In this document: positions 14,614-63,691 of the stretch, piece after piece | Position numbering within the stretch: position 1 is the first letter of the stretch | How the letters are laid out: each line of letters opens with the position of its first letter | NCBI GenBank assembly: GCA_964371655.1 | Contig: CAYJOD010000001.1 | Coordinates: forward strand, 84,572-148,571 | DNA: 64,000 nucleotides | Origin: an uncultured Candidatus Binatia bacterium | GTDB taxonomy: Bacteria > Desulfobacterota > Binatia > HRBIN30 | Direction: 5' to 3' | The notes under the pieces: model-generated | Told to the model about the DNA's origin: nothing | The model's input: the letters and a program-made list of their open reading frames with translations, nothing else | Databases searched by the model: none | Made by a program: the position numbers and the translations under genes

Positions 14614-16860
14614 TCACGGCGTCGGCGACGGCGTGGCGGTCGGAGTCGCGGGGACTGTCGGAACAGCGGTCGGCGGCGGGCTGAAGTACGTGAGCGCCTT
14701 GTCGTACGCGTCGGCGCCAATGATCGAGCCCATGCTGCGACCGCCGAAGTCATCGGCCAGAATGTGGATGCCGCCCCAGATCCGCGATTGCCCCGCCTGG
14801 TCTGCGGCGTCGAAGTACGTCGCCCACTGCAGCTGAAGGTCATCGCTCGGGCCGAGCTCGAACTTCAGGAAGGCGTTCTTCTTCGCGACGAATGTTCCAA
14901 GGCCGCCCGGGAAGTAGGGAGAACCGGTGAAGTGCGCGAGCACCTCGGCGCCCGAGCGACTAAAGGTACTGTGCCCCGACGTGAACGCCGCGAAGGCGGG
15001 CGTGACGAATGTATCCTTCTGGTACGTGACCCAGGTCTTCGCGCGTATCCACTGCACGCCACTGTATTGCGTGGTTGGATCGATAGGCGCGCCGGGCCAC
15101 GATAGAATTGCAACCTCACCGACAAAATTGGTCAGGGCTGCGTGCCGCTGGCCGGCGGCGCTCGACTCCGGCGTGATCACTTCGATGAGCCCGGGCACTA
15201 GTGGAAGTCCTTCGGGATCGTACGACGGCCCGGTTGGGTCCGACGACTGCCCGTGCTCGCCCATATATCGGATCATCGAGATGGGTCGCACCGAGTCATA
15301 GACGCGCTTGGTCCCCCAGCATCCTATTGCCGCGTCGTGCTCCGCGCCGTTGATCGCGAGGTAGAGCTTCACGTCCCACTCGAGATCGTTCACGATCGGC
15401 CCCCCGCCGCCGATCCGCTTTTCGGTGTGCGGATTGTCGGAGACGCTATTCGCGAGCACGTTCCAATGTCCCGGAGGCGTTTCGGAGCTCGGCCCATCGG
15501 CCCAGAACTCGGCGATCACGCGCCCGAAGTCGCCGCGCTTGACGATCTCGGGAGCGTACGGCAGCCCCGTCGCCGGGTTCACCGGATAACCACTGCCGTC
15601 GTTCGTCCCGAGCGGGTTGTTCCCGAAAGAGGCCGGTGAGACGTCCATCGTAACGCCGTCGTCCGGCGTCAGGCGACTCGACGCCAGGATTACGTCGACC
15701 GCCGCTTGCTTGAAACCTGCGTCGCTCACCGGATCGTTCAGCTTCGGCGGCGGTCCCGGAAGCAACTCTTCGAGATTCGCGGCGAAGGGGAGAACGCTGC
15801 CCCACTGCGGAGCGACGTAGGTCTGGACGGAACCCGGAATCGGGATACCGTTTTGGGTGACCTGGTGCGACAAGGCAAGCGGCTGCCAGCGGTTCGGGTC
15901 GTTCATCGTGGTGCCAGGCAGAGCGACGATAAGAGGATCGTTCACCGGCGAATAGGTGGGATCTCTGTAATTGTTCGCTTCATTGGAACCATCAGTAAGA
16001 CCGTATGCGATTACGGCCTGCGCGATACGGTTGCCGACCGCAGCCGGGGTGTCGCCGGTGGTCGAGGTGAAGCCCGGGTCGTAGCCGAGCGCCGTCATAC
16101 GCGCGGCAAACGAAGCCAGGGAAGCCGCGGCATTGGCCGAGATCTTGTAGCGCTGCGTCAGGATGCCGAACGCGGCATAGCTGATGGCTTCGGCACGATC
16201 CGTCTGGGGATCCGCGGACACGTGTTTCTCGGTGGTAAGGTAGCCGATGGCCATCGGATCATAGGCTGCCCACGCATCCCAGGCCGCTACCGAGAAGTGG
16301 AAGAGATTGCGCGCATGCACGGGCGGCCGCGGCAGATCGATGCGAATGGCGGCGAGGATTTCTTCGTCCCACTGGCGCGCGACGGACTGCGGATGCAACG
16401 TCGGCGTCAGCGACGGCGTCGGTGACATCGTCGGCGTCGACGTATCGGCCCCGGTCGCCGTGAGCGTCGGCGTGGCGGTCGCGGTGCCGGTCGGCGTGTC
16501 CGTCACCGTGAACGTCGCCGTGGGCTCTACCGGAACTGTCGCGCTCGAAGTTGCGGTGGCGGTGCTAGCCAGCGTAGCGGTCGCGGTGGCAGTACTAGTC
16601 AGCGCCACGGTTGCGCTGGCGGTGTTAGCGGGCGTAGCTGTCGAGGTGACGGTGCTCGTCAACGCAACCGTCGAAGTGGCGGTGCTACCAGGAGGCGTAA
16701 CTGTTGGAGTGGCCGTGGTAGTCAGCGGAACTGTCGCGCTGGGCACATTCGTCGCCGTCGGGTTCGCGACGACCACCGCATCTTTGTCCCCGCAGGAGGT
16801 CAGAACCATGCAACTGAGAATGAATCCGGACACAGCTAAGCTGCCACGCAATTGAACCAT
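14614..16860 (-). CDS. Vanadium-dependent haloperoxidase-like / PAP2-superfamily lipoprotein with long Thr/Pro/Ala-rich linker
   Basis: Lipobox LTSCGD. About 130-aa T/A/P low-complexity linker. PAP2/VHPO motifs KRVYDSVRP, TSGHST, SRIWGGIHILADD. N-terminal catalytic-domain motif ARQWDEEILAAIR..ARNLFHFSVAAWDAW. Confidence 0.8.
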   Translation of the reverse strand: MVQLRGSLAVSGFILSCMVLTSCGDKDAVVVANPTATNVPSATVPLTTTATPTVTPPGSTATSTVALTSTVTSTATPANTASATVALTSTATATATLASTATATSSATVPVEPTATFTVTDTPTGTATATPTLTATGADTSTPTMSPTPSLTPTLHPQSVARQWDEEILAAIRIDLPRPPVHARNLFHFSVAAWDAWAAYDPMAIGYLTTEKHVSADPQTDRAEAISYAAFGILTQRYKISANAAASLASFAARMTALGYDPGFTSTTGDTPAAVGNRIAQAVIAYGLTDGSNEANNYRDPTYSPVNDPLIVALPGTTMNDPNRWQPLALSHQVTQNGIPIPGSVQTYVAPQWGSVLPFAANLEELLPGPPPKLNDPVSDAGFKQAAVDVILASSRLTPDDGVTMDVSPASFGNNPLGTNDGSGYPVNPATGLPYAPEIVKRGDFGRVIAEFWADGPSSETPPGHWNVLANSVSDNPHTEKRIGGGGPIVNDLEWDVKLYLAINGAEHDAAIGCWGTKRVYDSVRPISMIRYMGEHGQSSDPTGPSYDPEGLPLVPGLIEVITPESSAAGQRHAALTNFVGEVAILSWPGAPIDPTTQYSGVQWIRAKTWVTYQKDTFVTPAFAAFTSGHSTFSRSGAEVLAHFTGSPYFPGGLGTFVAKKNAFLKFELGPSDDLQLQWATYFDAADQAGQSRIWGGIHILADDFGGRSMGSIIGADAYDKALTYFSPPPTAVPTVPATPTATPSPTP

Positions 16861-17127
16861 AGTTTTTCCTCGCCTCTCCTCGAACCGCTATCTGAGTCGG
16901 TGACCGACTTCCCAATATCGTAAGGGCCTTTCACTATTCCGAGCCGTGATACTCGCCCAGGTGGAGCGAGCTACCGAATGGCCGCTTCAACATGCCCTCT
17001 GCCTCGAGTCCGAGGCCACTGGAACAGACAGAAGCGCCAGGCGGCTTCCGCACCGCAATTCGGCCGGAGGTGGTGCAGCGGGTTGGAGTTCGGGCTTTGG
17101 CCCAACGCCGGTCCGTTAAGAAGTTCC

Positions 17128-17317
17128 GCCCCGAAGGGGCAGCGATTCGGACGCCCAGGGCAACGCCCTGGGAATACCATCGCGAAGAGATAGAAGCCAT
17201 GAAGGGGCGAGATTCGTTCGGCCACGCTAGGAGTTTCGCCCTTTCAGGGCTTTCGACCGAGACATTCCATTTCCCGGGGCGATGCCCCGGGCTATCGGGT
17301 TGATGCCCCTTCGGGGC
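17128..17317. repeat. Array of five short GC-rich hairpins inside a 928-nt non-coding gap
   Basis: Perfect stems: 17128-17140 GCCCC/GGGGC; 17154-17172 CCCAGGGC/GCCCTGGG; 17238-17250 GCCCT/AGGGC; 17273-17291 CCCGGGGC/GCCCCGGG; 17305-17317 GCCCC/GGGGC. Confidence 0.7.
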
Positions 17318-17659
17318 GGAGTCCATCACCTTAACCGACCGGCATTGGGCTTTAGCCGGCCGCAGGCGTTCAATCAGCGAACGAAGACCGCCTAAAGACG
17401 GAGCTTTAACCACTCGTATCGAATTACCGGGCGAAGCCGCCAAGCTCGTTGAAGGCGCAGCGCCCACGCTTGCCGCGTCCAATGTACCCGCTACCCGTAG
17501 TCCGATCTGCCTCACCCTCATCCTCCCGCGCCAGGTCCAAAGCGAGCAGACTGGTTCGGAAGGCCACGCGCGTCAACTAAGGGAAAATACTGATACGCCC
17601 GACGACGACGCTTGTTCATCCGCATCTCGGAGCGCGCCCGATTGTCACTGTAAAGCAAA

Positions 17660-17687
17660 GAGCCGCCAGGATCGCTCCTGGCGGCTC
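17660..17687 (-). terminator. Candidate intrinsic terminator of the Cys-rich repeat gene
   Basis: 11-bp stem GAGCCGCCAGG/CCTGGCGGCTC with a 6-nt loop. On the minus strand it is followed by TTTGCTTTAC. It lies about 100 nt downstream of the stop at 17789. Confidence 0.45.
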
Positions 17688-17788
17688 TGAATGAAAGCGT
17701 GACCGCAACAATCAACGCTTCTCGCTCAATACTTATCCTCGCTTATCGTCACAGCTCCTTCACCATCGCGTTGATCAGCGGTCGCCAT

Positions 17789-19489
17789 TCACTGCGGTCG
17801 AAGTGGTCGCAATGGTCGGGGTGGGCGTCGCGTGGGTACCTCGATTGTGCCGTTATTGCAGGTACGGCTGACTGAGTTGTAGATGGTGCCGTCGCAGCAG
17901 CCTTGGGTCAGTAGGTTGTAGGTGAGGCCATCGCAGCAGGCCAGGTTGAGATTGTTGTAGGGCGTGCCGTTGCAGCAGCCTTGCGTGGCTGTTTCGACGC
18001 AGCGCGACACGTGCGGAGGGTTCGGCCGGTGCGGCTGCGGCCGTGCGATTGGCGTGGGTGATTCGACTGTGCCGTTATTGCAGGTGCGTGTGAGTGAGTT
18101 GAAGATGCTGCCGTCGCAGCAGCCCTGGGTCTGCAGGTTGTAGGTCAGTCCGTTGCAGCAGGCCAGGTTGAGCTTATTGAAGGGCGTGCCATCGCAGCAG
18201 CCTTGCGAGTCCGTTTCGACGCATCGCGGCGGGGCGGGACACAGTCCAATCAGACCGTCGGTGCAACAACGTGTAAGCGAGTTGAAGATCTCGCCGTCGC
18301 AGCAGCCTTGCGTCTGCAGGTTGTAGGTCAGGCCATTGCAGCAGGCCAGGTTGAGCTTGTTGTAGGGCGTACCATCGCAGCAGCCTTGCGATTCCGTTTC
18401 GACGCAGCGTGGGCCGGCCGGACACAGGCCAATCGCCCCGTTGATGCAGCAACGTGTGAGCGAGTTGAAGATCGAGCCGTCGCAGCAGGCTTGGGTCTGC
18501 AGGTTGTACGTCAGGCCGTTGCAGCAGGCCAGGTTGAGCTTGTTGTAGGGCGTACCGTCGCAGCAGCCTTGCGAGTCCGATTCGACGCACTGCGGCCCCG
18601 GTGTCGGCGGGACGATCACTCCGTCGCTGCAGGTGCGGGTCAGTGAGTTGTAGATGCTACCGTCGCAGCAGGCTTGGGTGAGCAGGTTGTAGGTCAGGCC
18701 GTTACAGCAGGCCTGATTGAGCTTTCTGTAGGGCGTACCGGCGCAGCACCCCTGGGTGTCGGTCTCGATGCAGTCTGGCTCCGCGGGACACAGGTCGATT
18801 GCACCGTCGCTGCAGCAACGTGTGAGCGAGTTGAAGATGCTGCCGTCGCAACAACCTTGGGTCAGCAAGTTGTAGGTCAGGCCATTACAGCAGGCCAGAT
18901 TGCGCCGATTGTACGGCGTCCCGTCGCAGCAGCCCTGCGCGTCAGTTTCGACGCAGTCGGGCGCCGCGGGACAAGGCCCTACGGCTCCGTCGCTGCAACA
19001 ATCTCTGATTGAGCTGTAGATGCTTCCCGCACAGCAGCCTTGCGTCAGCAGGTTGTAGGTCCGGCCGTTGCAGCAGGCCAGATTACGCTTGTTGTAAGGC
19101 GTCCCGTCGCAGCACCCCTGCGTGTCAGTTTCGACGCACTGCGGGAGCTGCGGCTGATTCGGCCGATGCGGCTGGTGCGGTTGAGGCCGTGCTATGGGCG
19201 TGGGTGATTCAATCGTGCCGTTGTTGCAGGTGCGCGCGAGGGTATTGTAGATGGTGCCGTCGCAGCAGCCTTGGGTCAGCAGGTTGTAGGTGAGGCCGTT
19301 GCAGCAGGCCAGGTTGAGCTTGTTGTAAGGCGTCCCGTCGCAGCAGCCCTGCGTACCACTTTCGACGCACGGCGCCGCGGCGGCCACCGCTACAGCGGGC
19401 CACTTGATCACGCCCCACCCGACGGCAAAAAAGAAAATGGCACTAACGGCCAATGCCCCTCGAAACGATCGCGGAAGTTTCATGGTCAT
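17789..19489 (-). CDS. Secreted cysteine-rich tandem-repeat protein (8 repeats, vicinal CC pairs); no known family recognised
   Basis: Signal peptide (residues 1-40), then 8 units of consensus CVETDxQGCCDGTPYNKLNLACCNGLTYNLxTQGCCDGSI(F/Y)NSLTR(C/T)C. Unit boundaries at residues 41, 118, 179, 240, 301, 362, 423, 497. Confidence 0.85.
   Translation of the reverse strand: MTMKLPRSFRGALAVSAIFFFAVGWGVIKWPAVAVAAAAPCVESGTQGCCDGTPYNKLNLACCNGLTYNLLTQGCCDGTIYNTLARTCNNGTIESPTPIARPQPHQPHRPNQPQLPQCVETDTQGCCDGTPYNKRNLACCNGRTYNLLTQGCCAGSIYSSIRDCCSDGAVGPCPAAPDCVETDAQGCCDGTPYNRRNLACCNGLTYNLLTQGCCDGSIFNSLTRCCSDGAIDLCPAEPDCIETDTQGCCAGTPYRKLNQACCNGLTYNLLTQACCDGSIYNSLTRTCSDGVIVPPTPGPQCVESDSQGCCDGTPYNKLNLACCNGLTYNLQTQACCDGSIFNSLTRCCINGAIGLCPAGPRCVETESQGCCDGTPYNKLNLACCNGLTYNLQTQGCCDGEIFNSLTRCCTDGLIGLCPAPPRCVETDSQGCCDGTPFNKLNLACCNGLTYNLQTQGCCDGSIFNSLTRTCNNGTVESPTPIARPQPHRPNPPHVSRCVETATQGCCNGTPYNNLNLACCDGLTYNLLTQGCCDGTIYNSVSRTCNNGTIEVPTRRPPRPLRPLRPQ
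17792..19369 (-). repeat. Eight in-frame tandem coding repeats (183 nt core unit, longer where Pro-rich linkers are present)
   Basis: Repeats 2-6 are exactly 61 codons each. Repeats 1, 7 and 8 carry ESPTPIARPQPH or PTRRPPRP linkers (77, 74 and 70 codons). Confidence 0.85.
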
Positions 19490-19793
19490 CCCTCCATGTG
19501 GATCCGCCCCACCGGATCAACCCTGCCCTGGTTCTTACGTGCAGGGATGGTCGCACGGGATTGTGGGCGCGGTCAAGGGGGTATTAGCGGGCGTAGAGAC
19601 TATTTGGACGATCTCGCGGAGGATCCACCGCACCGCAAGCATGCGGCGATCGAACCGCCAATCCGATGCACTTGAACTCCGACGCTTCGCTCCGGTGGGA
19701 ATAGCTATTGATCTTTGATACTGCTCTTCGAACCGAGCGGTGTGGCCACGAACATGCTGCACGGCACGCGTACCCGCGGGGCAAGGAGGACGT

Positions 19794-25611: not shown

Positions 25612-26832
25612 TCAGCTCCCCAAACCCGCCACCGTCGGAGGCTCGGTCGGCGAGTCCCACGGAGGCAACAGCTTGATCAAGCCAGTCAGGACGATGAATG
25701 GCAAGACCAGCAGGCAGACGGCGGTCAGCAGGCCCTCAATTCCCAGCAGCTCAATCTTGTACTCAGTCAGCCCGCGGAAGCTCTTGGAAAACAGCTGGCC
25801 GCCGATCACGACGTTCCAGCGCGTGCTGAAGATTCCTACCTGGATCAGGATCGCGGCAACGAAGTAGAGCAGCTTGCGCAGCTCATCGGCCAGGTTGAAG
25901 AGCTTGATGATCACGAACAGCAGGAACGGAACCGCCATCCCCAGCAGCAGCTGCATCACCACCAGACTGACGACCAGCTTGTCCAACACCAGCCTGCTGA
26001 GGATGTTGATCGACTCCTCGCTCTCGTACAGGCGGTGAATGAAGTCGAGAAACTCGAGCGAAAAATCCACGATGACCGCGTAGAACAGGTACGAACACAT
26101 CGTATCGAGACATTTCATGTCGATCGACTGGCCGCGCAGGGGCGTGGCGATCATGTAGATCAGGATGACCAGCGCGATTCCTGAGACGATTGCGGAGAAC
26201 AGGAAGACGATGGGCATCAGCACGCTGCTCCACCACGGGTTCGCCTTGATCGAGCCGAAGATGAAGCCGACGTAGCCATGCAGCAGGAACGCCGATGGGA
26301 TGCCGATGATGGTGATGACTTTGACCGCCTTGCGGTCGAATTCCAACGCCTTCGGGCTGATGTCGCGCGAGAAGAGCGACAGCACCTTGTACACCCACTT
26401 CAACGGCCAGCGCGTTTGCCGCGCGTACAGGACGAGGTCGCGCCGATAAACAAACCACACCTCGAGGAGGAGCACCGCCATCAGGTACCAGGCATAGACG
26501 AATCCGAACATTGCCATGGCCGAGGTCGGGTTGGGCGCCAGGAAGATCCAGAAGGCTCGTTCCGGATGCCCGAGGTGCATTTGCAGGGGCACGGGTGCGA
26601 TGAGCAGGAAGGCGAGCGCCGTGAGCAGCGCCAGGCGATAGGTCGGTGCAACCTCCTTCACGTTGAACACTTTAACCAAGGAGGCGAGAATGAAGGCCCC
26701 GGCGACCAGACCCGTGAGGTACGGGTAGAGCACGATTAGAATTGACCACTGTACGTCGAGCTCATTGGGGTAGAGATATCCGGTGGCCGCGTCGGCCACT
26801 TCGGTCAGTCGGTGTAGAGCCTCCGGAATCAT
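25612..26832 (-). CDS. NrfD/PsrC-family quinol-interacting membrane subunit
   Basis: 406 aa, about 10 TM helices. ATGA overlap with the upstream FeS subunit gene at 26829-26832. Confidence 0.8.
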   Translation of the reverse strand: MIPEALHRLTEVADAATGYLYPNELDVQWSILIVLYPYLTGLVAGAFILASLVKVFNVKEVAPTYRLALLTALAFLLIAPVPLQMHLGHPERAFWIFLAPNPTSAMAMFGFVYAWYLMAVLLLEVWFVYRRDLVLYARQTRWPLKWVYKVLSLFSRDISPKALEFDRKAVKVITIIGIPSAFLLHGYVGFIFGSIKANPWWSSVLMPIVFLFSAIVSGIALVILIYMIATPLRGQSIDMKCLDTMCSYLFYAVIVDFSLEFLDFIHRLYESEESINILSRLVLDKLVVSLVVMQLLLGMAVPFLLFVIIKLFNLADELRKLLYFVAAILIQVGIFSTRWNVVIGGQLFSKSFRGLTEYKIELLGIEGLLTAVCLLVLPFIVLTGLIKLLPPWDSPTEPPTVAGLGS

Positions 26833-27572
26833 CGTACGCCCCCATCGAGATTGGTGTAGAATACCTTCGGCTCGGTATTCAGATGGTCCTTGAGCACGTG
26901 CACCTTGCTCATCCGTTTCAGGCGATTGAGCGGGCTCGCCATGCTGTTTATGTCACCGAACACGCGCGCCTGGGTCGGACACACCTCAACGCAAGCGGGC
27001 AGCAGACCGCGGGTGGTGCGGTGATAGCAGAACGTACACTTGTCGGCGGCGTGCGTGACCGGGTGGAGGTAGCGCGCGCCGTAGGGGCACGCCTGAATGC
27101 AATAGCGACAGCCGATGCAGCGAGTGCTGTCGACGAGGATCACGCCCTCAGGGGTCTTGAAGGTCGCGCGCACGGGACACACCTGGACGCATGGTGGATT
27201 TTCGCACTGGTTGCAAAGTTTCGGAACGAAGTAACTGCGCAGGACATCTTTCTCGGACACATCCTCGGGGGTTCCGATGCGATAGGTGCCAATCGAGTTT
27301 ACTGCGACTTCGCCGTTTCTCTTGACCACGTACTGCTCGACCCAGGTGCGGAAGAAGAATGGCTCCGGCGGGACGTCGTTCTCACTCTTGCACGCTTGCA
27401 TGCAGAGGCCACAACCGATGCACTTGTCGACCTGGATACCCATTCCGAAGAGTTTGCCGTTCTCCTCGTGTGCAACGCTGGCCACCGCGCGCTTGGCACC
27501 CAGCAGCCAGCGCGCACCCGCGAGTGACAGGAGATAGGACCAGAAATTGTGGAGAAACCCGCGTCTGTTCAT
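26829..27572 (-). CDS. NrfC/DmsB-type 4-cluster iron-sulfur subunit with Tat-like leader
   Basis: MNRRGFLHNF leader. Four Cys clusters: CIGCGLCMQAC, CNQCENPPCVQVCP, CIGCRYCIQACP, CTFC..CVEVCP. ATGA overlap with the octaheme gene at 27569-27572. Confidence 0.85.
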   Translation of the reverse strand: MNRRGFLHNFWSYLLSLAGARWLLGAKRAVASVAHEENGKLFGMGIQVDKCIGCGLCMQACKSENDVPPEPFFFRTWVEQYVVKRNGEVAVNSIGTYRIGTPEDVSEKDVLRSYFVPKLCNQCENPPCVQVCPVRATFKTPEGVILVDSTRCIGCRYCIQACPYGARYLHPVTHAADKCTFCYHRTTRGLLPACVEVCPTQARVFGDINSMASPLNRLKRMSKVHVLKDHLNTEPKVFYTNLDGGVR

Positions 27573-28318
27573 GATCCCACCTCCGGCATGTGCGGATAGT
27601 GACACTGCCAGCACACGTACTTCTCCTCATGGCTATCGATATCCACCTTAGGAGCCTCGGCGACCTTGGAGCCGATTGCGTGGCACTTGCCGCAGAAGGC
27701 ACGGTTCGTCGGCTTCTCCGCACGCGCCAGGTGCGGCGTGATCTTGTGCTGCTCGGGCGTCGCGTGACAGTTGGTGCAAGCCAGGCGCGCGTGTGGCGAC
27801 AGTGCTTTCGTGCGTTCTATCCCGCCGTGACAAGCGCCGCATTCTGTCGGCACGACCTTGGGCTTGGGATCGTGAGGGTTATGGCACGATACGCACGGAT
27901 CGATCGGATTGTGCGAGGCGGGATTGATCTGCGGGAAGCCCAGTGGCCGCGACACTTTGTAGGCGTGGCACTGCGGGCAGAAGTCGCGGCCGCGCGGGAT
28001 CCTCGGCTTCACAGCGGTCGGATCGTCCGCATGCGCCTGCGCCGCTCCATGACAGGTCTCGCAGGACATGGTGCGATGATAACCCTGCTCCTTGAGATCG
28101 TGCTGCTCAGGATGACACGGCGAGCACGCTCCGGCGCCGGCGAAATGCGGCTCTCTCGCGGTCTCCCGTGCAATCACCGAACGGATCTGAAACGCAGGAT
28201 CCTTCAGCGATTCAGGAATAAGGTAGCGGTGCCCGTAAAAGGCGGCACCGACAAGCGCTCCGGCGAGTATACCGAGCCGTAGCAACGGGTCTGGAATCTT
28301 TCCTAGGAATCTCAGCAT
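27569..28318 (-). CDS. Membrane-anchored octaheme c-type cytochrome
   Basis: Eight CxxCH motifs (CSPCH, CETCH, CPQCH, CVSCH, CGACH, CTNCH, CGKCH, CWQCH). N-terminal hydrophobic anchor. Confidence 0.85.
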   Translation of the reverse strand: MLRFLGKIPDPLLRLGILAGALVGAAFYGHRYLIPESLKDPAFQIRSVIARETAREPHFAGAGACSPCHPEQHDLKEQGYHRTMSCETCHGAAQAHADDPTAVKPRIPRGRDFCPQCHAYKVSRPLGFPQINPASHNPIDPCVSCHNPHDPKPKVVPTECGACHGGIERTKALSPHARLACTNCHATPEQHKITPHLARAEKPTNRAFCGKCHAIGSKVAEAPKVDIDSHEEKYVCWQCHYPHMPEVGS

Positions 28319-56003: not shown

Positions 56004-57392
56004 GTGATGGCGGGCCGAAGCTTGTCCGCGGCACGAGCCATCTCCTATCTCGTCATGCTTGCGACCGCGCCAAGCCTGTGGGCAGCGCCGGCCGCCGTCG
56101 CCGCGTGGCCCGAGTCGCTGGTCATGCCTGGTGAGGTCGTGGAGAAGCACGCGCGCGTCGAGGCGGAGTGCATGAAGTGTCACGCTCCACTCAACAAGGC
56201 GGCACAGGATCCGCTCTGCCTCGACTGTCACAAAGACGTGGCCGCGGATCTGGCTCAGAAGCGCGGGTTCCATGGGCAGGAGCCTACCGTCGGTGGCCGG
56301 CGTTGCGGGACCTGTCACGCAGAGCATAAGGGCAGAAGCGCCAACATCCTGCCACTGAACCGAGAAACGTTTGATCATCGCCATACCGTCATGCCCCTGC
56401 GTGGCGAGCACACGAAAGTGCGCTGTGAAAACTGCCACCTCGCCGGCAAGCGCTATCGCGAGGCGTCACCACAGTGCAACGATTGCCACGCGCGCAAGGA
56501 CCCGCACCAGACCACCCTGGGAACGAGCTGCGATAGCTGCCATGCGCCGTCCGCTTGGAAGACGGTGCGTTTCGATCACGACACCGCGCCGTTCCGGCTG
56601 GAAGGGCGGCATCGTGAGACGCATTGCGACAGCTGCCACAAGACCAAGCTCTTCAAAGCTACGGCAACCGACTGCTGGTCGTGCCACGGACCGAAAGACA
56701 AGCATCGCGGCAGCTTTGGAAGTAACTGCCAGTCGTGCCACACACCGACGCGGAAGTGGTCGGCGACGGAGTTCGACCACGCGCACAAGACACAGTTCGT
56801 CTTGGTGAGCCGCCACGCCAGCACGGGTTGCGAGAAGTGTCACCGCGATGGCCTCGCCGCGAAGCTTACACCTACGGCATGCTTCGGCTGCCATGAGCGC
56901 AACGACGGCCACCACGGGCAGTACGGGCGCGCCTGCGAGACGTGCCACGTTCCGACCGACTGGAAGCGTCCGACGTTCGTGCACGACCGCGACACGCATT
57001 TCTCGCTGCGCGGGCGGCATAAAGAGAACCGCTGCGCCGACTGTCACCGTGGCAACCCGCGCGAGGAGCACCTCGATAAGAGCTGCATCACCTGTCATCG
57101 CAACGACGACGTTCATCACGGCCGGCAGGGGGCGCGTTGCGACAAGTGCCATGACGAGCGCGGCTGGAGTCGCGACGTGCTCGTCGATCATGACGCAACC
57201 AAGTTCCCATTGACGGGCGCGCACACGCGCGTCACCTGCATCGGCTGCCATCCATCCCCCGTCTTCAAGGGCGTCGCGCGCGAATGCGTGTCGTGTCACG
57301 AGCGCGACGGTGTCCAACGCTGCCGGCGCGGCCCCGAGTGCGAGCGCTGCCATGAGACATCCACCTTCCGTCTGGTGCGAGCCCCGCAATGA
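56004..57392 (+). CDS. 18-heme c-type cytochrome built from tandem cytochrome-c7-like triheme modules
   Basis: 18 CxxCH motifs counted. Recurrent module FDH..H...C.xCH....C.DCH...D.H.G..G..C..CH. Signal peptide AISYLVMLATAPSLWAAPA. Confidence 0.9.
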   Translation: MMAGRSLSAARAISYLVMLATAPSLWAAPAAVAAWPESLVMPGEVVEKHARVEAECMKCHAPLNKAAQDPLCLDCHKDVAADLAQKRGFHGQEPTVGGRRCGTCHAEHKGRSANILPLNRETFDHRHTVMPLRGEHTKVRCENCHLAGKRYREASPQCNDCHARKDPHQTTLGTSCDSCHAPSAWKTVRFDHDTAPFRLEGRHRETHCDSCHKTKLFKATATDCWSCHGPKDKHRGSFGSNCQSCHTPTRKWSATEFDHAHKTQFVLVSRHASTGCEKCHRDGLAAKLTPTACFGCHERNDGHHGQYGRACETCHVPTDWKRPTFVHDRDTHFSLRGRHKENRCADCHRGNPREEHLDKSCITCHRNDDVHHGRQGARCDKCHDERGWSRDVLVDHDATKFPLTGAHTRVTCIGCHPSPVFKGVARECVSCHERDGVQRCRRGPECERCHETSTFRLVRAPQ

Positions 57393-60142
57393 TGAACCAC
57401 GGGACAGAGGCGCGCGTCGCAGCCCACCACAGCGCGGTTCACACTGGGCGACGCCGGGTACCGCGCCCGCATGGGCACGTTCCGATTGCGCTGCTGTGCT
57501 TCGTCATCGCCCTTCCCGCTGCCGCCCTTGCCGTTTGCGGAGGAGGCGGGACATCGCGTCTTCCGCTTCCCGCGGTCACGCATTTGCGCAGCTACCGCGC
57601 CCCATTCAGCGTTCCGACACGAATGGCGGTCGATGCATCCGGGAACGTGTACGTCACCGACCCGGGACTCGGCCAGGTCATCGTGCGCGCCCCGAACGGG
57701 CGCATCATCTCGCGGGTCGGTGGTCTCGGACATCCAGTCAGCGTTGCGGTGGGCAGCGCCGGTCGCATCTACGTCGGCGATACGGCATCCGGCAGCGTCA
57801 CCGCGTTCAACGCAGAATGGCAGAAGCTCCTAGAGTTGGGGCGCGGCGCCGGCGAGTTTCTGCAGCCCAGCGACGTGGCCGTCGATGCGGCAACCGGCAA
57901 CCTTTACGTCGCCGACAGCGCGGCGCAGCTCGTCAAAGTTTACACGGCTGCCGGCACCTTCGTACGCAGCTTTGGCGGTCATGGGAGTGGCGACGGCCAG
58001 TTCGACTTCCCCGTCGGAGTCTTCGTCGACGCGGCGGCGCACCAGGTCTTGGTCGCAGATCAACTGAACTATCGCATTCAGATCTTCGACGTCGCGGGCA
58101 ACTTCCTGTCCTGCTTCGGGGCGCAGGGAAGCGGACCGGGCAATTTCAACCTGCCGCAAAGCGTGTCGAGCGACCGCGCCGGTCGCATCTACGTCGCCGA
58201 CTCCGTTGAAGGGCACATTCAGGTGCTCGACCGCAGCGGCGGATTCGCCGGCTACATTGGCGATTTCGGCGACGCTGCCGGGCAGCTGCGCATTCCCATC
58301 GGAATGGTCATCGATCCGTCCAACCGGTTATTCGTCGCCGCCGCGAACAACGCGCGCCTGGAGGTGTTTGGGTTGGACGCGTTCGCCGACCCCGAGACCA
58401 TCCTGCCCGCCGTGGTCCACCTGGAACCCGAGCTCATCGACAAGGCGGCCCCGGCGACCAACGTCGCGAGTTATATCGAAGTGCCCGGATATTCACTCGA
58501 CTCGGTTGTCTCCGGCAGCATTTCGGCCAACGGCATCTCGACCGCCACGGTTCCGATCTCGGTGGGCGATCACGACGGCAATGGCGACCCCGACCTGCGC
58601 GTCGAGTTTCCGCGTGCAGCGTTGCTGGCGACGCTACCACCCGACGGTGCCGCTACGGTGACTGTGACCGGCCGCCTCGGAACCAAGCAGTTCGAAGCCG
58701 CGGCCGTGCTCCACATCACCACTTGCGCAGCTGGAACCATCTGTTCGCTTGGCGTTGCGGAGCCACAGTGCAACGAGGCCGTCTGCATCGCTGCCGTCGG
58801 CTGCACCATACAGCGCAAACCCGACGGTACTCGATGCGAAGACGGAAACGCCTGCACGATCGACGACGTTTGCGGCGCCGGCGTCTGCGCCGGAGCAGGA
58901 TTGCCCTGCGACGACGGCAATGCGTGCACCGACGACAGCTGCGACCCCACCGGCGGCTGTGTGCACACGAACAATTCCGAGCCGTGCGATGATGCGAACG
59001 CCTGCACGTCCTTAGACAAGTGTGCGGGAGGAACCTGCGGTGGTACGTCGCTTGGCTGCGACGACGCTAACGTATGCACGGACGACACCTGCGACCCGGT
59101 GCATGGTTGTGCTCACACGAACAATGCCGAGCCTTGTGACGATGGCAACGCCTGCACCAGTGCGGACAGGTGTGCGGCAGGCGTCTGTGCCGGCGTAGCG
59201 ATTCGCTGCGATGGCGGGGATGTGTGCAGCAAGGGCAGCTGCGATCCGGCGCGTGGCTGTATCCACGCCTATACCAGCGCGTCCTGCAATGACGCCGATC
59301 CCGGCACCGTAGGCGACGCGTGCGACGGCGCCGGCAGCTGCGTCGGCACCGCGGTTACCGGGCGCTATGCGCTTCTGCGTTGGCCCCTGGACGCTTCCCG
59401 CCACGGCGCGCCGACCCGCATGCGCAAGGGCCTCATCCATGGCGACGTCTGCGCCGAGAGCCTCCGAGTAGGACCGCTCAGCCAGATTCAGGGAGACATG
59501 GTGGCCTGGGCTCGCGACGGCTGGGCTATTGAGTTCAGTGGTCAGAGTCAGATCGCCGGCAACGTGGTCACAGGCGGCGGGACAATCGTGGGGATCAACC
59601 CGGTGGCCGTCCGCGGCCGTGTCGACGTCTTTGGCCGCGGCACCGAGCTGGCGCAATGCTTCGCGGCTCGTTATCGCGCCACACAGCGCCGAGGCGACTT
59701 CGGCGCCCTTCCCCCGACGCCCGGTTTCGCGCTGGGACTAATTCAGCTGAATCCGGGAGGCAATCAGCGCCTTCCGTCCACCGGAGAATTCGCGAGTGGA
59801 CAGACGGTGATCGAGATCACCGAGCTGCGTCTGGATTCATCGAGCACGCTGACGCTGGCGGGGACGCCGGCCACGGGAGCGGTGATCGTCCACATCCGCA
59901 ACCGGATGTTGGTCGGACGTGGCGCGCGCATCGCTCTCGATGGGTTGGCGCCCGAGCGGCTGCTTTTCGTAATCGACGGATCGGTCATCCTGAGGCCACA
60001 AGCGAGCGTCGTCGGCTCGGTGTTCGCGGCGAAGCGCGTGCACATGGGCAGCGCCAGCGCCATCACCGGGGCACTGCTCGGCAGTGTCATCCATCTGTCC
60101 CCATCCGCCACCATAGACCTTCACCCGTTCGTGGGATGGTAA
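57389..60142 (+). CDS. NHL-repeat beta-propeller protein fused to Ig-like, tandem Cys-rich (CxDGNxCTxDxC) and C-terminal beta-solenoid-like regions; possible lipoprotein
   Basis: Six NHL-like blades (e.g. GQFDFPVGVFVD, GNFNLPQSVSSDRAGRIYVADS, GQLRIPIGMVID) at residues about 75-328. Cys-rich repeats at residues about 446-651. C-terminal 260 aa resembles DUF3494/choice-of-anchor solenoids. AALAVCGG near the N-terminus. ATGA overlap with the 18-heme gene. Confidence 0.85.
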   Translation: MMNHGTEARVAAHHSAVHTGRRRVPRPHGHVPIALLCFVIALPAAALAVCGGGGTSRLPLPAVTHLRSYRAPFSVPTRMAVDASGNVYVTDPGLGQVIVRAPNGRIISRVGGLGHPVSVAVGSAGRIYVGDTASGSVTAFNAEWQKLLELGRGAGEFLQPSDVAVDAATGNLYVADSAAQLVKVYTAAGTFVRSFGGHGSGDGQFDFPVGVFVDAAAHQVLVADQLNYRIQIFDVAGNFLSCFGAQGSGPGNFNLPQSVSSDRAGRIYVADSVEGHIQVLDRSGGFAGYIGDFGDAAGQLRIPIGMVIDPSNRLFVAAANNARLEVFGLDAFADPETILPAVVHLEPELIDKAAPATNVASYIEVPGYSLDSVVSGSISANGISTATVPISVGDHDGNGDPDLRVEFPRAALLATLPPDGAATVTVTGRLGTKQFEAAAVLHITTCAAGTICSLGVAEPQCNEAVCIAAVGCTIQRKPDGTRCEDGNACTIDDVCGAGVCAGAGLPCDDGNACTDDSCDPTGGCVHTNNSEPCDDANACTSLDKCAGGTCGGTSLGCDDANVCTDDTCDPVHGCAHTNNAEPCDDGNACTSADRCAAGVCAGVAIRCDGGDVCSKGSCDPARGCIHAYTSASCNDADPGTVGDACDGAGSCVGTAVTGRYALLRWPLDASRHGAPTRMRKGLIHGDVCAESLRVGPLSQIQGDMVAWARDGWAIEFSGQSQIAGNVVTGGGTIVGINPVAVRGRVDVFGRGTELAQCFAARYRATQRRGDFGALPPTPGFALGLIQLNPGGNQRLPSTGEFASGQTVIEITELRLDSSSTLTLAGTPATGAVIVHIRNRMLVGRGARIALDGLAPERLLFVIDGSVILRPQASVVGSVFAAKRVHMGSASAITGALLGSVIHLSPSATIDLHPFVGW

Positions 60143-60150
60143 GGCCGCCA

Positions 60151-61536
60151 ATGAAGCGAAGGCGAATACCCGATTGGTGGCTGTGTCTGGCGTTGGCGTG
60201 CATCGCCAGCGCTGCAGCCCAGGCACTCGACCCGCCCCACGACGCGAGCAAGTCGATCGATTGCGCCAACTGCCACATCACGCACCACGCCCCCGGTGGC
60301 GCAATCACCACGGTTGGCGGGAATCCGAACCTGTGCATCAGCTGCCATACCGCGGGCGGGCTGGCGTCCGCCAAACCATTTGCCAACAGCGACGAAGCGA
60401 TCCCAGGAACCAGCGGCACCTCGCATCGGTGGGACTCCGGCGTGGCGGGTTGGGTCAAGACGAATTCCGCGAACACCTCGCCAGGCACCGTGCAGTCGGG
60501 AGGCAGTTTCACCGGGCGTTACCGCAAGGCGTACACGATCACCATCAGCAGCGCCGGTGATGCAGGCACGGCGCTGTTCAATTGGACCACGTCCAATCTC
60601 GTCGGCCTGACGTACGTGGATGCGTTTGCGGCCATCGCCTACAACGGCAGCAGCGGGACGCAGGCGTGGACCGCGAGCCCCTGGCAGGAGATCGTCGAGG
60701 CCGACGGGCCGGCCGCGGGCTTCGTCCAAGTGGTGGCCAACGTCGCCTGTGCCAGCGGCGATTGCCTGCGGATCGGCGGCGGAACGATCGATACGCGCGG
60801 GTTGCAACGCCCGGCGAACGTAAGCGGCGCCACGGCGGCCACGCTGACCTTCAGCTACCGCCGGCAGCTGGCCACATGTCCGAACACCAGCACCGCCAAC
60901 GTCGCTCTCCAAGTCAGCAGTAACGGAACGACCTGGGCTACACTCGCTACCTACAATTTGAACAATTGCGATGCCGTCCCGGTCGCGCAGGTCTTCGACC
61001 TCACCCCTTACATCGCCGCCGCCACGCGGATCCGCTTTGTCGGCGTCGGCACCACCGCTGCCACCGATTTCAGCTACATCGACAATGTCCAGATTCAATA
61101 CGTGGTCTCCGGTCGTGGGGCCACGAACGTCACCTCCGGCGCCAGCGTGGGCCTGGATGAAGGTATCACCGTCACCTTCAACAGTGGGACGCCGTCGCCG
61201 TCGTTCAGGCTGAACGATCAATGGACCGTTTTCGCTAGCGCCGATATCAACCAGCCGACCACGCCCGCCTTGGCGGCGCGCATGACTGGCGGCGTCGCGA
61301 CGTGCTCGACGTGTCACAACGAACACAGCCAAGTGGGTGAGCCCTTCGATCTTGCCGCCCCCGCGTATCCGGTGCCGGGACCCGGCGGGGTCGGACGCCA
61401 TTACCAGCGCACCGACGACGACATCAATCAGATGTGCGCCGATTGCCACAGCACCCGTAAGGTGACGGCGTCTTCACAGGGATCCCACCCGGTCGGCGTC
61501 GTGATCCCCAGCATTGGTCCGTTCAAGAATCCCTAG
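60151..61536 (+). CDS. Secreted tetraheme cytochrome c with large non-heme insert domain
   Basis: Signal peptide [45 protein letters not shown] (CxxCHxxH style). Insert at residues about 155-317 is shared with the next protein. Confidence 0.85.
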
Positions 61537-61543
61537 GTTCACA

Positions 61544-63691
61544 ATGAAACGGATCATCCTGCTCCTTGGTTTCTGTTGTACGGCGGTGGCACCGCAGATG
61601 GTCGGTGTCGCGGCGGCGCAGAGCACCTACCGCGACAACTTCAACTCGGCCGTCTACAGCGGCTCGAACGGTACAGCGAGCTGGACGAGCTCGCCCTGGG
61701 TCGAAAGCGACGACGCGGGCGGAGGTGCGACGGGTGGAAACATCTTCGTCGTTACCGCGAGCGGCTGCCCGCAAGGGACCTGCCTGAACGTCAGCGCGGT
61801 CGATGTTCCTGACCAGATCTACCGACAGGCCGATCTCAGCGCCGCCACGGCGGCTACGCTTACCTACACGTACTGCCACGACAGCGCACCCGGTTCTGTC
61901 GTCGCGGAGATTTCCTACAACGGCGGCAGCAACTGGACGACGGTTGCCACCTACTCGAGCCAGAGCACGTGCCCGAGCACGCAGAGCTTCACACTCACCC
62001 AGTTCACCAGCAACACGCGGCTGCGCTTCCGCGTCACGGCGACCGGTGGCGCGATCCTCTACGTCGATCAGGTACAGTTCGCCTTTTCCACGGGAGCGGT
62101 CGTGTCGCCGACCGCGACTCTGACCAGAACGCCCTCGGCGACGACTACGCCCACTCTCACGGCGACGCGAACGCCAACCACTCCGTCGACGCCGACGCCG
62201 ACGAATACTCCCACGAGAACCGCAACCAACACCCCGACAGGGCCGACCGGCACGCCGACGCGCACGCCAACGATTACCCAGACAGCGACAATTACCCAGA
62301 CGTTCACGATCACGCGGACGCCTACGGTGACCAACACGCCGACCCGAACGCCGACGGGACCCACGGCGACGATCACCGCGACAGCAACGATCACTCCGAT
62401 TCCGAACGCGTTCCCCCTGCCGCTCGACAAGAAGACGGCCGCGGTCCGGTGCATGACGTGCCACAACGTGCACTACCAGGGAGCCGGCGCCGGCATGCTG
62501 CTGCGCAGCGGGAACACGAACGCCCTGTGCACCGACTGCCACACCCTGGCCGACACCACGACACCGGCAGCGCATCTCAACGCCTCGACAGGCGCGTTGT
62601 GGCCCGGCCCGAAATACGGAACGCTTTTCCCGGCTATCACCGACACGACCCAGCGTGGCGCGTGCTCCAACTGTCACCGCTCACATGGGTGGCCGGATGA
62701 GGGCAATCCCGGCCAGGACTATCCAACCCTGCTGGTCAATCGCGAGGAGAACCTCTGCTACACGTGCCACGACGGTACCGTGACGCCGAAGAACCTGCTG
62801 GTTCAATTCACGAAGAGCTACCGCCATCCGGTACCGGACTACAGCGGCCGTCACAGCACGAGCGAAGATGGAGCTCCGTCCGCCTACGGCACCGCGAATC
62901 GTCACTCCGAGTGTGCCGACTGTCACAACCCTCATCTAGTCAATGCCGATGCGACCGCTCCGAGCGCCCCCACGGCCTCGAACCGGATCCGTGGCGTCAG
63001 CCGGATTGCCGTGGCCAATGGCGCGGCGGGGACGGTCCCGACGTACACCTACCGTGGACCCAACGACGCCACCGCCCCGATCACCGAATACCAGCTGTGC
63101 TTCAAGTGCCACTCGTCGTGGACGACGCAGCCCGCGGGCCAGTCGAACACCGCCGTGCAGTTCAACAGCAACAACCGCTCCTACCATCCCGTCGAAGCAC
63201 AGGGGAAGAACACCAACATCAACGTCAACTCATTTGCGAACGGGTGGACGGGGACCAGCGCCATGTACTGTAGCGACTGTCACAGCGGAGATGACGCAAC
63301 TGTCCGCGGCGCGCATGGGTCGCAATACCGGTACATCCTCAAGCAGGCGTCGATTGCCAGCAGCAGCAGCCGGACCACAGCCTCCACCGAGCTGTGCTTC
63401 AATTGCCACTCGTACAACACCTACGCCAACACCGGCGCCACCACGACCCAGGAAAACTACAGTCGCTGGTCTTCGGCCGGCAGCCAAGACAACGGACACA
63501 CGGCGCACGTGGTCAACCATCGAGCCCCCTGTTACGCGTGCCACGCCTCGCACGGTGTGGCCACGCAGCCGCACTTGATCGTCACCGGCCGCAGCCCGGG
63601 CATCAACACCTACACGGAAACAACCAACGGTGGGACCTGCTCCCCCACCTGCCACGGCACAGAGAGTTACACGATCACCTATGCGCGTTGA
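61544..63691 (+). CDS. Secreted multiheme cytochrome c (9 CxxCH + 1 CxxxCH) with N-terminal non-heme domain and Thr/Pro linker
   Basis: Signal peptide [27 protein letters not shown]. Shared domain at residues 29-181. T/P-rich linker at about 186-283. Heme motifs CMTCH, CTDCH, CSNCH, CYTCH, CADCH, CFKCH, CSDCH, CFNCH, CYACH, CSPTCH. Confidence 0.85.

Follow-up and report, generated by a model that had tools for sequence, protein, structure and literature searches.

What is a bacterial protein that consists of a signal-like N-terminus followed by eight repeats packed with vicinal cysteines, and what would a bacterium do with it? The question is raised by one gene on the minus strand of a 64,000-nucleotide (nt) stretch of DNA from an uncultured Candidatus Binatia bacterium (assembly GCA_964371655.1, contig CAYJOD010000001.1, positions 84,572 to 148,571; hereafter, the window). 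A first-pass annotation, made from the letters of the window alone, could name no family for the product and proposed either a beta-solenoid surface fiber or adhesin, comparable to antifreeze folds, or a metal or redox buffer. We find that the product is, as judged by its sequence, a bacterial member of the galaxin-like repeat family (Pfam PF24748/PANTHER PTHR34490). It is moderately probable that this galaxin-like di-cysteine repeat protein is encoded by a native gene of a diderm bacterium of the class Binatia and is exported as a disulfide-stapled scaffold or adhesin. The export, the disulfide map, the localization, and the scaffold or adhesin role are the parts of this reading that we infer.

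The family assignment comes from a match far above threshold. The Galaxin_repeat profile (PF24748) aligns to 7 stretches of the protein and scores 133 bits (E = 8.2e-39), where the curated cut-off is 28; the orthologue L009 reaches 160.6 bits. An exhaustive HMMER scan of 1.84 billion representative proteins gave 161 matches at E <= 1e-3, 20 at E <= 1e-10, and 3 at E <= 1e-30, and PF24748 was found in 92 of the 93 best matches scanned against Pfam. A word-indexed search of 5.8 billion protein clusters returned 8 matches, comprising prokaryote-type proteins and animal galaxin-like ones (Antedon, Mytilus, and Sycon). For the same protein, NCBIfam gave only noise, and a sequence search of the PDB yielded a single chance match (E = 0.89). 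A weak CBM_14 match in one relative (P0014) was attributed to cysteine (Cys) composition. The view that no family could be named is thus superseded; this is largely the match to a described Cys-rich repeat family that the first-pass annotation had held to count against its own reading, save that it had spoken of a family with known function. The repeats are best known from the skeletons of corals and the symbiotic organs of squid. Galaxin-like proteins have been reported from animals, other eukaryotes, and archaea (PMC12419799), and our literature searches found no paper on bacterial ones.

How closely does the protein follow the family pattern? Galaxins are secreted proteins of tandem di-Cys repeats with about 12 to 13% Cys (PMC2726143), and in galaxins and sponge calcarins the di-Cys lie 10 to 15 residues apart, with one single Cys on either side (PMC12419799). 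The Binatia protein contains 72 Cys (12.7%) and 28 CC pairs, compared with 9.7 ± 2.7 pairs and a maximum of 21 in 10,000 shuffles of the mature sequence. It is divided into eight units that each open with C[VI]E[ST] (Table 1), and units 2 to 6 are exactly 61 amino acids (aa) long. CC-to-CC spacing inside the units is 13, 13, and 12, within the published range, and every module has a single Cys 8 residues before the first pair and another 13 residues after the last canonical pair. The Cys autocorrelation peaks at lags of 61 and 13, and Tandem Repeats Finder reports a period of 183 nt, 5.7 copies, and 81% matches for the gene. The eight nested repeats with 8 to 10 Cys apiece that had first been described are therefore borne out, as is the double occurrence of ESPTPIARPQPH. 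Two kinds of unit can be distinguished: the "closed" ones (units 2, 3, 5, and 6), with 10 Cys and a terminal CCxxGxxxxCP, and the "open" ones (units 1, 4, 7, and 8), with 8 Cys, which run into proline (Pro)-rich linkers. These two types had been said to alternate; the types stand, but their order is O-C-C-O-C-C-O-O, without strict alternation.

The likeness to animal galaxins extends to the Cys content, the regularly spaced di-Cys with single Cys on both flanks, and a shared consensus, CC-x-G-x2-[YF]-[ND]-x3-[TQ]-x-CC; the protein is also acidic, like coral galaxins, and carries a putative secretion signal. The differences are equally clear. Scleractinian galaxin consists of ~30-aa tandem repeats with two di-Cys each, has a dibasic propeptide site, and plays a skeletal matrix role (PMC2726143), whereas the window protein, from a bacterial host, has 61-aa units in which caps accompany three canonical di-Cys and lacks both a dibasic site behind the signal and animal-type partner domains. 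Where animal galaxins show 10 to 15 variable residues between pairs or units of about 30 aa and form one long continuous ladder, the window protein has a minimal, uniform 13-residue period and is broken into eight capped four-hairpin modules, separated by Pro-rich linkers or by a putative extra, noncanonical staple. It is hence a member of the galaxin family and not an orthologue of the Galaxea or Acropora galaxin. What is new here is the Binatia host, the highly regular minimal 13-residue hairpin, and the capped four-hairpin modules with an optional, putative extra staple.

The predicted fold supports the same placement. Two AlphaFold2 runs on repeat-aware alignments, one covering units 3-4 and one units 5-8, gave mean predicted local distance difference test (pLDDT) scores of 88.8 and 84.8, respectively. 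Each unit is predicted to form four hairpins at a 13-residue period, with 4-residue strands (7-10/13-16, 20-23/26-29, 33-36/39-42, and 46-49/52-55) and 2-residue turns. The hairpins of unit 3 read QGCC-DG-TPYN, LACC-NG-LTYN, QGCC-DG-SIFN, and RCCS-DG-AIDL, and in the three canonical ones the CC lies at the end of strand 1. The pLDDT is 90 to 95 in the module cores, 74 to 82 at the junctions after closed units, 66 to 71 in the C-terminal tail, and 46 to 65 in the linker from unit 7 to unit 8. Predicted template modeling (pTM) scores are low (0.44 for units 3-4 and 0.31 for units 5-8), values that an elongated, jointed molecule would fit. In published AlphaFold models of galaxins and calcarins, each di-Cys supplies the N-terminal portion of a four-residue hairpin whose turn spans two residues, and the first Cys of every pair is disulfide-bonded to the second Cys of the pair before it (PMC12419799). 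The architecture predicted here agrees with these models, including the flanking single Cys, and this is a comparison of prediction with prediction. Coral galaxin, sponge calcarins, squid EsGal1-10, and mollusc cysrichin share the predicted chain of hairpins with 4-residue strands and 2-residue turns.

Foldseek found no solved structure in the PDB at E <= 0.001 (best E = 0.21), so the fold is one without an experimental representative; the best matches were viral fiber repeats with template modeling (TM) scores of <= 0.21. The Tenebrio-type antifreeze beta-helix is built of 12-residue TCT repeats joined by a disulfide ladder, and the resemblance is real in part: a short (12 to 13 aa) Cys-containing period, a disulfide-stabilized repetitive fold, and abundant Thr, Asn, and Gly. 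However, the antifreeze protein is a solenoid, whereas the window protein is modeled as a linear chain of separate two-stranded hairpins; its sequence has no match in the PDB, and none of the 26 Foldseek matches listed is an antifreeze protein. The antifreeze-type Cys ladder is therefore not supported, and the surface fiber or adhesin first proposed is still plausible, without its solenoid form.

How might the cysteines be paired? The window gene and seven relatives, some of which (e.g., L014 and P0016) may be near-duplicates, together supplied 37 modules whose terminal hairpins were aligned. A Cys at +13 from the last canonical pair, the canonical position of the first Cys of a next pair, is kept in all 37 modules and by its register corresponds to the downstream cap described for the galaxin family. 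Closed modules have additional Cys at +12 and +21, both present in 10 modules, both absent in 27, and mixed in none; because they always co-occur, an extra staple disulfide is proposed for closed modules. By analogy with the family models, each module would contain the disulfides C1-C9, C10-C22, C23-C35, and C36-C48, to which closed modules would add a noncanonical C47-C56, as suggested by register and co-occurrence. The number of Cys is even in every module, and this, together with the strict co-occurrence, would fit fully paired disulfides; with the canonical spacing, these features give indirect support to a continuous disulfide chain between hairpins.

The remaining features of the protein are those of a seemingly exported molecule with charge segregated along its length. 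Its N-terminus opens with a basic n-region; a hydrophobic core of 17 aa (hydropathy maximum of 2.19 over residues 12 to 26) and Ala-x-Ala motifs are also present, but no lipobox. No domain other than galaxin repeats was found. The description of a protein made wholly of repeats holds, and export is the likely meaning of the signal-like N-terminus. The mature protein is acidic (isoelectric point [pI] of 4.96, net charge of about -10.6); all module cores are negatively charged, and the linkers and the C-terminal tail are positive and Pro/Arg-rich.

From these observations, a mechanism can be sketched. A Sec-type N-terminal signal would export the protein, which would fold oxidatively outside the cytoplasm. 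Each of the eight units would be a self-contained module whose three canonical di-Cys are capped by a single Cys at each end, in which CC ends the first strand of a 13-residue hairpin and, as in the galaxin models, the second Cys of a pair bonds the first Cys of the next; the four resulting disulfides would chain the four hairpins into a short rigid rod. In closed modules, the fifth staple would clamp the C-terminal extension against the last hairpin and bring it up against the next module, and closed modules would fuse with the module that follows into longer rods (2-3-4 and 5-6-7), whereas open modules would pass into flexible, extended Pro-rich linkers. The product would be a string of acidic rods, two of them double and several single, on basic extended spacers with a basic Pro/Arg tail, a protease-resistant "beads on a string," and its most likely role would be that of an extracytoplasmic structural or adhesive scaffold, i.e., a surface or matrix fiber or spacer. 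Other prokaryotes attach this array, apparently as a stalk, to enzymes or binding domains, in support of a structural or spacer role.

Is the array real? Tandem 183-nt repeats are prone to collapse or expansion in short-read assemblies, and the open reading frame (ORF) list contains several overlapping ORFs in other frames at this locus, as might be expected of an assembly artifact or of a noncoding repeat with a chance open frame. This explanation is effectively refuted, and the array, for which a check against reads had been advised, is genuine. The identical 564-aa product is present on 8 independently assembled metagenome contigs of 38 to >200 kilobases (kb), and the three of them that were retrieved show 0 mismatches within the repeat gene; two are 100% identical to the window across 21.7 kb, and the third has 10 differing positions and 2 gaps, all outside the gene. 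No exact DNA repeat in the gene is longer than 38 nt, which leaves no ambiguity in assembling the array. An orthologue in a separately assembled metagenome-assembled genome (MAG), a ratio of nonsynonymous to synonymous substitutions (dN/dS) of 0.2, the strong Pfam match, and a ribosome-binding site and terminator all argue in the same direction.

The array is also old. DNA identity among the units is 76 to 90%, and this similarity had been correctly seen, but the recent expansion or gene conversion read from it is not supported. Codon differences between units comprise 319 synonymous versus 324 nonsynonymous changes, and Nei-Gojobori estimates give a mean dN of 0.13, a mean dS of 0.65, a minimum dS of 0.23, and a dN/dS of 0.20. 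On these values of dS and dN/dS, the units duplicated long ago and purifying selection acts on the protein sequence. Unit identity is 78% within the protein versus 72% between orthologues, and units 1 and 8 of the window are up to 88% identical to units 2 and 8 of L009, a pattern that points to old modules with modest lineage-specific turnover.

Relatives of the same design number six or seven, full or partial (L009, L012, L013, L014, P0014, P0015, and P0016). Among 185,579 species-representative genomes, the sole relative is L009, in MAG MFD01476.bin.1.163, labeled "uncultured delta proteobacterium"; ten modules, none of them closed, repeat every 65 aa in its protein and are joined by VVPPVTPVPLPQ linkers. 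L012 is a 415-aa protein with 4 open and 2 closed modules, L013 and L014 are partial genes with closed modules followed by linkers, and P0014 has four shorter modules of two di-Cys each; P0015 and P0016 also came from the metagenome and representative searches, the latter as a fragment with only a short Pro-rich spacer. Nearly all relatives consist of capped modules joined by Pro-rich linkers, and all those with the N-terminus present (L009, L012, L013, P0014, and P0015) begin with a signal peptide. A comparison of repeat number among relatives, as had been proposed, shows that module number (4 to 10) and type vary; the C-terminal tail is not conserved, and the GC content of the retrieved loci L009 to L014 is 62 to 65%. 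L014 has an in-frame stop codon (310-312) in the linker after a closed module, where P0016 has Lys; this is either a pseudogenized copy or a sequencing error.

Beyond these relatives, galaxin repeats occur in other prokaryotes in different settings. In P0001 (E = 1.8e-32), a low-GC protein, about 25 CC repeats lie between a reprolysin-type protease domain and a C-terminal sorting domain of the type IX secretion system (T9SS). Several outgroups are lipoprotein-like, six matches join the repeats with Fib_succ_major, and the gene of P0017 adjoins an NPCBM/melibiase gene. P0018 is archaeal, encoded within a typical rpoA''-L7Ae-NusA-S12-S7-EF2 row. P0001, P0018, and the lipoproteins with repeats and Fib_succ_major (P0007/P0026) share with the window protein the 13-residue CC hairpin repeat, export, and an array resembling a stalk or spacer. 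Unlike the window protein, which is repeats only, modular, and interrupted by linkers, they have long unbroken arrays attached to a domain for catalysis, binding, or sorting. L017 (1977-4670; GCA_038824715.1, JAWBPP010000041.1) encodes, within an archaeal ribosomal/RNA-polymerase gene row, a galaxin-repeat protein of 897 aa whose N-terminus is pilin-like (class III-type), meaning that galaxin repeats also occur in archaea.

Another arrangement is seen at L001 (9374-17018; GCA_024449895.1, JAANSX010761108.1), where a PMT_2 glycosyltransferase gene is followed by a tandem array of three cassettes. Every one of them encodes two secreted proteins: a galaxin-repeat protein whose C-terminal Cys-rich domain contains a conserved C-x-[SA]-H-D-[TI]-A-[YW] motif, and a paralogue of about 425 aa that matches nothing in Pfam. 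The motif presumably recalls the HD motifs of small phospholipase-A2-like proteins, and the cassettes may represent a different functional use of the repeats.

If the array is genuine and old, the next question is whether a scaffold or adhesin is the best account of it. In squid, repeat peptides of EsGal1 and EsGal2 inhibit bacteria (PMC12773714), and the basic, Pro/Arg-rich linkers and tail of the window protein might act like proline-rich antimicrobial peptides; the gene is also solitary and its context variable, as is often the case for accessory or competition genes. An antimicrobial or competitive effector is nevertheless quite improbable. The mature protein is acidic, whereas squid galaxins are strongly cationic (+5 to +21.5; PMC12773714), the tail is not kept among relatives, and no immunity, toxin, or secretion-system gene adjoins the repeat gene. 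The acidity would instead suit a mineral-associated matrix protein, an acidic framework that templates or binds carbonate or metal-oxide minerals in parallel to coral galaxin, sponge calcarins, and mollusc cysrichin. Coral galaxins of the same family have a similar pI of 4.5 (PMC2726143), galaxin-like proteins are tied to calcification in corals, calcareous sponges, and molluscs (PMC12419799), and with many multiheme cytochromes in the window, cell-surface metal redox chemistry is conceivable. We consider this very unlikely, since Galaxea galaxin does not bind Ca2+ (PMC2726143), galaxin-like proteins are common in noncalcifying animals (PMC12419799), the repeat protein has no Asp/Glu-rich runs, and no mineralization genes are linked at any locus. 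The 72 Cys, mostly in CC, and a neighborhood rich in redox proteins had also suggested an extracytoplasmic thiol, metal, or redox buffer. This idea is disfavored to the point of being highly improbable: the Cys lie where galaxin models place a continuous disulfide chain, with the two Cys of one pair bonded to different neighboring hairpins (PMC12419799), and adjacent Cys on a predicted beta-strand would face opposite sides. The even Cys count and the ever-paired extra Cys of closed modules fit full disulfide pairing, and the redox neighbors are not conserved beside the relatives.

Could the gene have come recently from an animal host, its product mimicking or binding the host matrix? The literature treats the family as essentially animal (PMC2726143, PMC12773714, PMC12419799), and Binatota, the candidate phylum to which the class Binatia belongs, is an uncultured lineage of soils, sediments, and sponges, reported in sponge microbiomes (PMC8262859). 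Yet the gene has a GC content of 62.2% and a third-codon-position GC content (GC3) of 77.3%, the same as the surrounding genes, and its units are old. The nearest outgroups are prokaryotic (the T9SS protein, the archaeal protein, and lipoproteins), with the first animal protein lower at E = 2.8e-12, and the CC period is mostly the minimal 13 in prokaryote-like proteins versus typically 14 to 16 in animal proteins and in most others. The one GTDB relative, L009, lies in a MAG whose MFD prefix probably marks it as part of the Danish Microflora Danica environmental survey. A recent animal origin thus has very little probability. An exported, disulfide-stapled scaffold or adhesin native to Binatia remains the preferred reading, and the host is taken to be diderm because the window encodes Omp85 and TonB-dependent receptor proteins. 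For the PurD protein of the window, the nearest relatives with a taxon name are "Candidatus Binatia bacterium" (79, 78, and 71% identity) and "Deltaproteobacteria bacterium" (77 and 71%), and one further match at 76%, on a 3.4-kb contig, is labeled Terriglobales. Several points weigh against the preferred reading all the same. The N-terminal signal, assessed by hydropathy and by eye, might remain uncleaved as an anchor; no sorting signal or partner domain is recognizable in the protein; and C36-C47/C48-C56 could be the pairing in closed modules instead of the one proposed. No neighbor genes are conserved between the window and L009, L010, L011, L012, L013, and L014, nor among these loci, so gene context gives no functional clue. 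Finally, the functions of the galaxin family are themselves at the stage of proposals, namely a framework in the coral skeletal matrix and antimicrobial peptide fragments in squid.

The coordinates of the gene, its flanking signals, and its units are collected in Table 1. The longest ORF version spans 17789..19489 on the minus strand (566 aa), where an in-frame ATG at 19489 would add Met-Thr. Public assemblies record only the 564-aa product from the ATG at 19483, and an exact look-up of the version from 19489 gave no match; for this reason, 19483 is the likelier start codon. With its own terminator-like hairpin, the gene looks monocistronic; no sigma-70-like promoter was found for it, and an Rfam search gave no match inside or beside it.

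Table 1. Features of the galaxin-like repeat gene and its product (window coordinates; aa, amino acids).
Feature	Coordinates	Strand	Details and basis
Coding sequence, galaxin-like repeat protein	17789..19483	-	564 aa from second ATG; ORF list, Pfam PF24748
Shine-Dalgarno-like GGAGGG	19490..19495	-	Directly before ATG 19489, 6 nt upstream of ATG 19483; sequence read
Intrinsic-terminator-like hairpin with T-rich tail	17649..17688	-	13 pairs, 9 G-C; 100 nt past stop codon
N-terminal signal peptide or anchor (putative), MKLPRSFRG-ALAVSAIFFFAVGWGVI-KWPAVAVAAAAP	19370..19483	-	Hydropathy, heuristic
Unit 1 (aa 41-117), open, then long linker IESPTPIARPQPHQPHRPNQPQLPQ (19139..19213)	19139..19369	-	8 Cys
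Unit 2 (aa 118-178), closed	18956..19138	-	10 Cys
Unit 3 (aa 179-239), closed	18773..18955	-	10 Cys; AlphaFold2 core pLDDT 93-95
Unit 4 (aa 240-300), open, with short linker VPPTPGPQ	18590..18772	-	8 Cys
Unit 5 (aa 301-361), closed	18407..18589	-	10 Cys
Unit 6 (aa 362-422), closed	18224..18406	-	10 Cys
Unit 7 (aa 423-496), open, then linker VESPTPIARPQPHRPNPPHVSR (18002..18067), predicted disordered	18002..18223	-	8 Cys; linker pLDDT 46-65
Unit 8 (aa 497-566), open, then basic Pro/Arg tail IEVPTRRPPRPLRPLRPQ (17792..17845)	17792..18001	-	8 Cys; tail net charge about +3.8

The adjacent genes encode a DUF6851/VCPO-like protein, a GMC oxidoreductase, an alpha/beta hydrolase, Omp85, and a cytochrome c7/Fe-S/NrfD cluster; we claim no functional link of any of them to the repeat gene, and they are not conserved beside its relatives. 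The DUF6851/vanadium-haloperoxidase-like protein (14614-16860, minus strand), whose gene is likewise not conserved beside those relatives, has 748 aa, a lipoprotein-like N-terminus (LTSC), and then about 170 aa of Thr/Pro/Ala-rich low-complexity linker. Between its gene and the repeat-gene terminator lies an imperfect palindrome of about 270 nt (17090-17360) that would fold into a single hairpin, with an RNA minimum free energy of -154.5 kcal/mol (z = -8.9); none of 200 shuffles reached this stability. It belongs to no Rfam family (the best, Acido-Lenti-1, scores 19.9 bits versus 37), and an independent contig (L004) terminates within it, at window position 17203. The 193- to 195-aa ORF called over the palindrome (16934..17521, minus strand) has no Pfam match and is probably spurious.

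Further away, a cytochrome c7-like/4Fe-4S/NrfD gene cluster (25612-28318, minus strand) is presumably similar to an alternative-complex-III-like module, and a 725-aa multiheme cytochrome with paired CXXCH motifs is encoded at 61514-63691 (plus strand); the host appears to be rich in periplasmic redox proteins. A 917-aa protein (57389-60142, plus strand) with NHL beta-propeller repeats, Dictyostelium-type Cys repeats (Dicty_CTDC, E = 2e-14), and a weak Ice_binding-like C-terminus is the second "eukaryote-flavored" Cys-repeat protein of the window.

What does a galaxin-like protein in Binatia mean for the family? What our analysis offers is not a new kind of system but an exact family assignment in place of "unknown family," together with a disulfide model that can be tested. 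Galaxins have been discussed almost only as animal proteins of biomineralization and symbiont control, and recruitment of pre-existing secreted di-Cys proteins has been argued (PMC12419799); the bacterial and archaeal members bear on the origin of these proteins of the animal "biomineralization toolkit." A bolder proposal, which we put forward as speculative and rather doubtful, is that the galaxin fold is perhaps no animal invention but a minimal 13-residue di-Cys hairpin module used outside the cell by prokaryotes, found in Binatia, T9SS-bearing, and Fibrobacter-type bacteria and in archaea, of which the Binatia proteins would be a distinct "capped-module" form that assembles into a disulfide-stapled surface or matrix fiber. 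Were this the case, the galaxins of animal skeletons and immunity would trace back to, or have been seeded by, an early extracellular module of prokaryotes; the repeat protein would then serve as a minimal, tractable system in which to study the unsolved galaxin structure. Its regular 52-residue modules, predicted at a pLDDT of >90, would make it convenient for a first experimental structure and disulfide map. For Binatota, the protein would represent a lineage-specific, strongly selected candidate component of the envelope or matrix.

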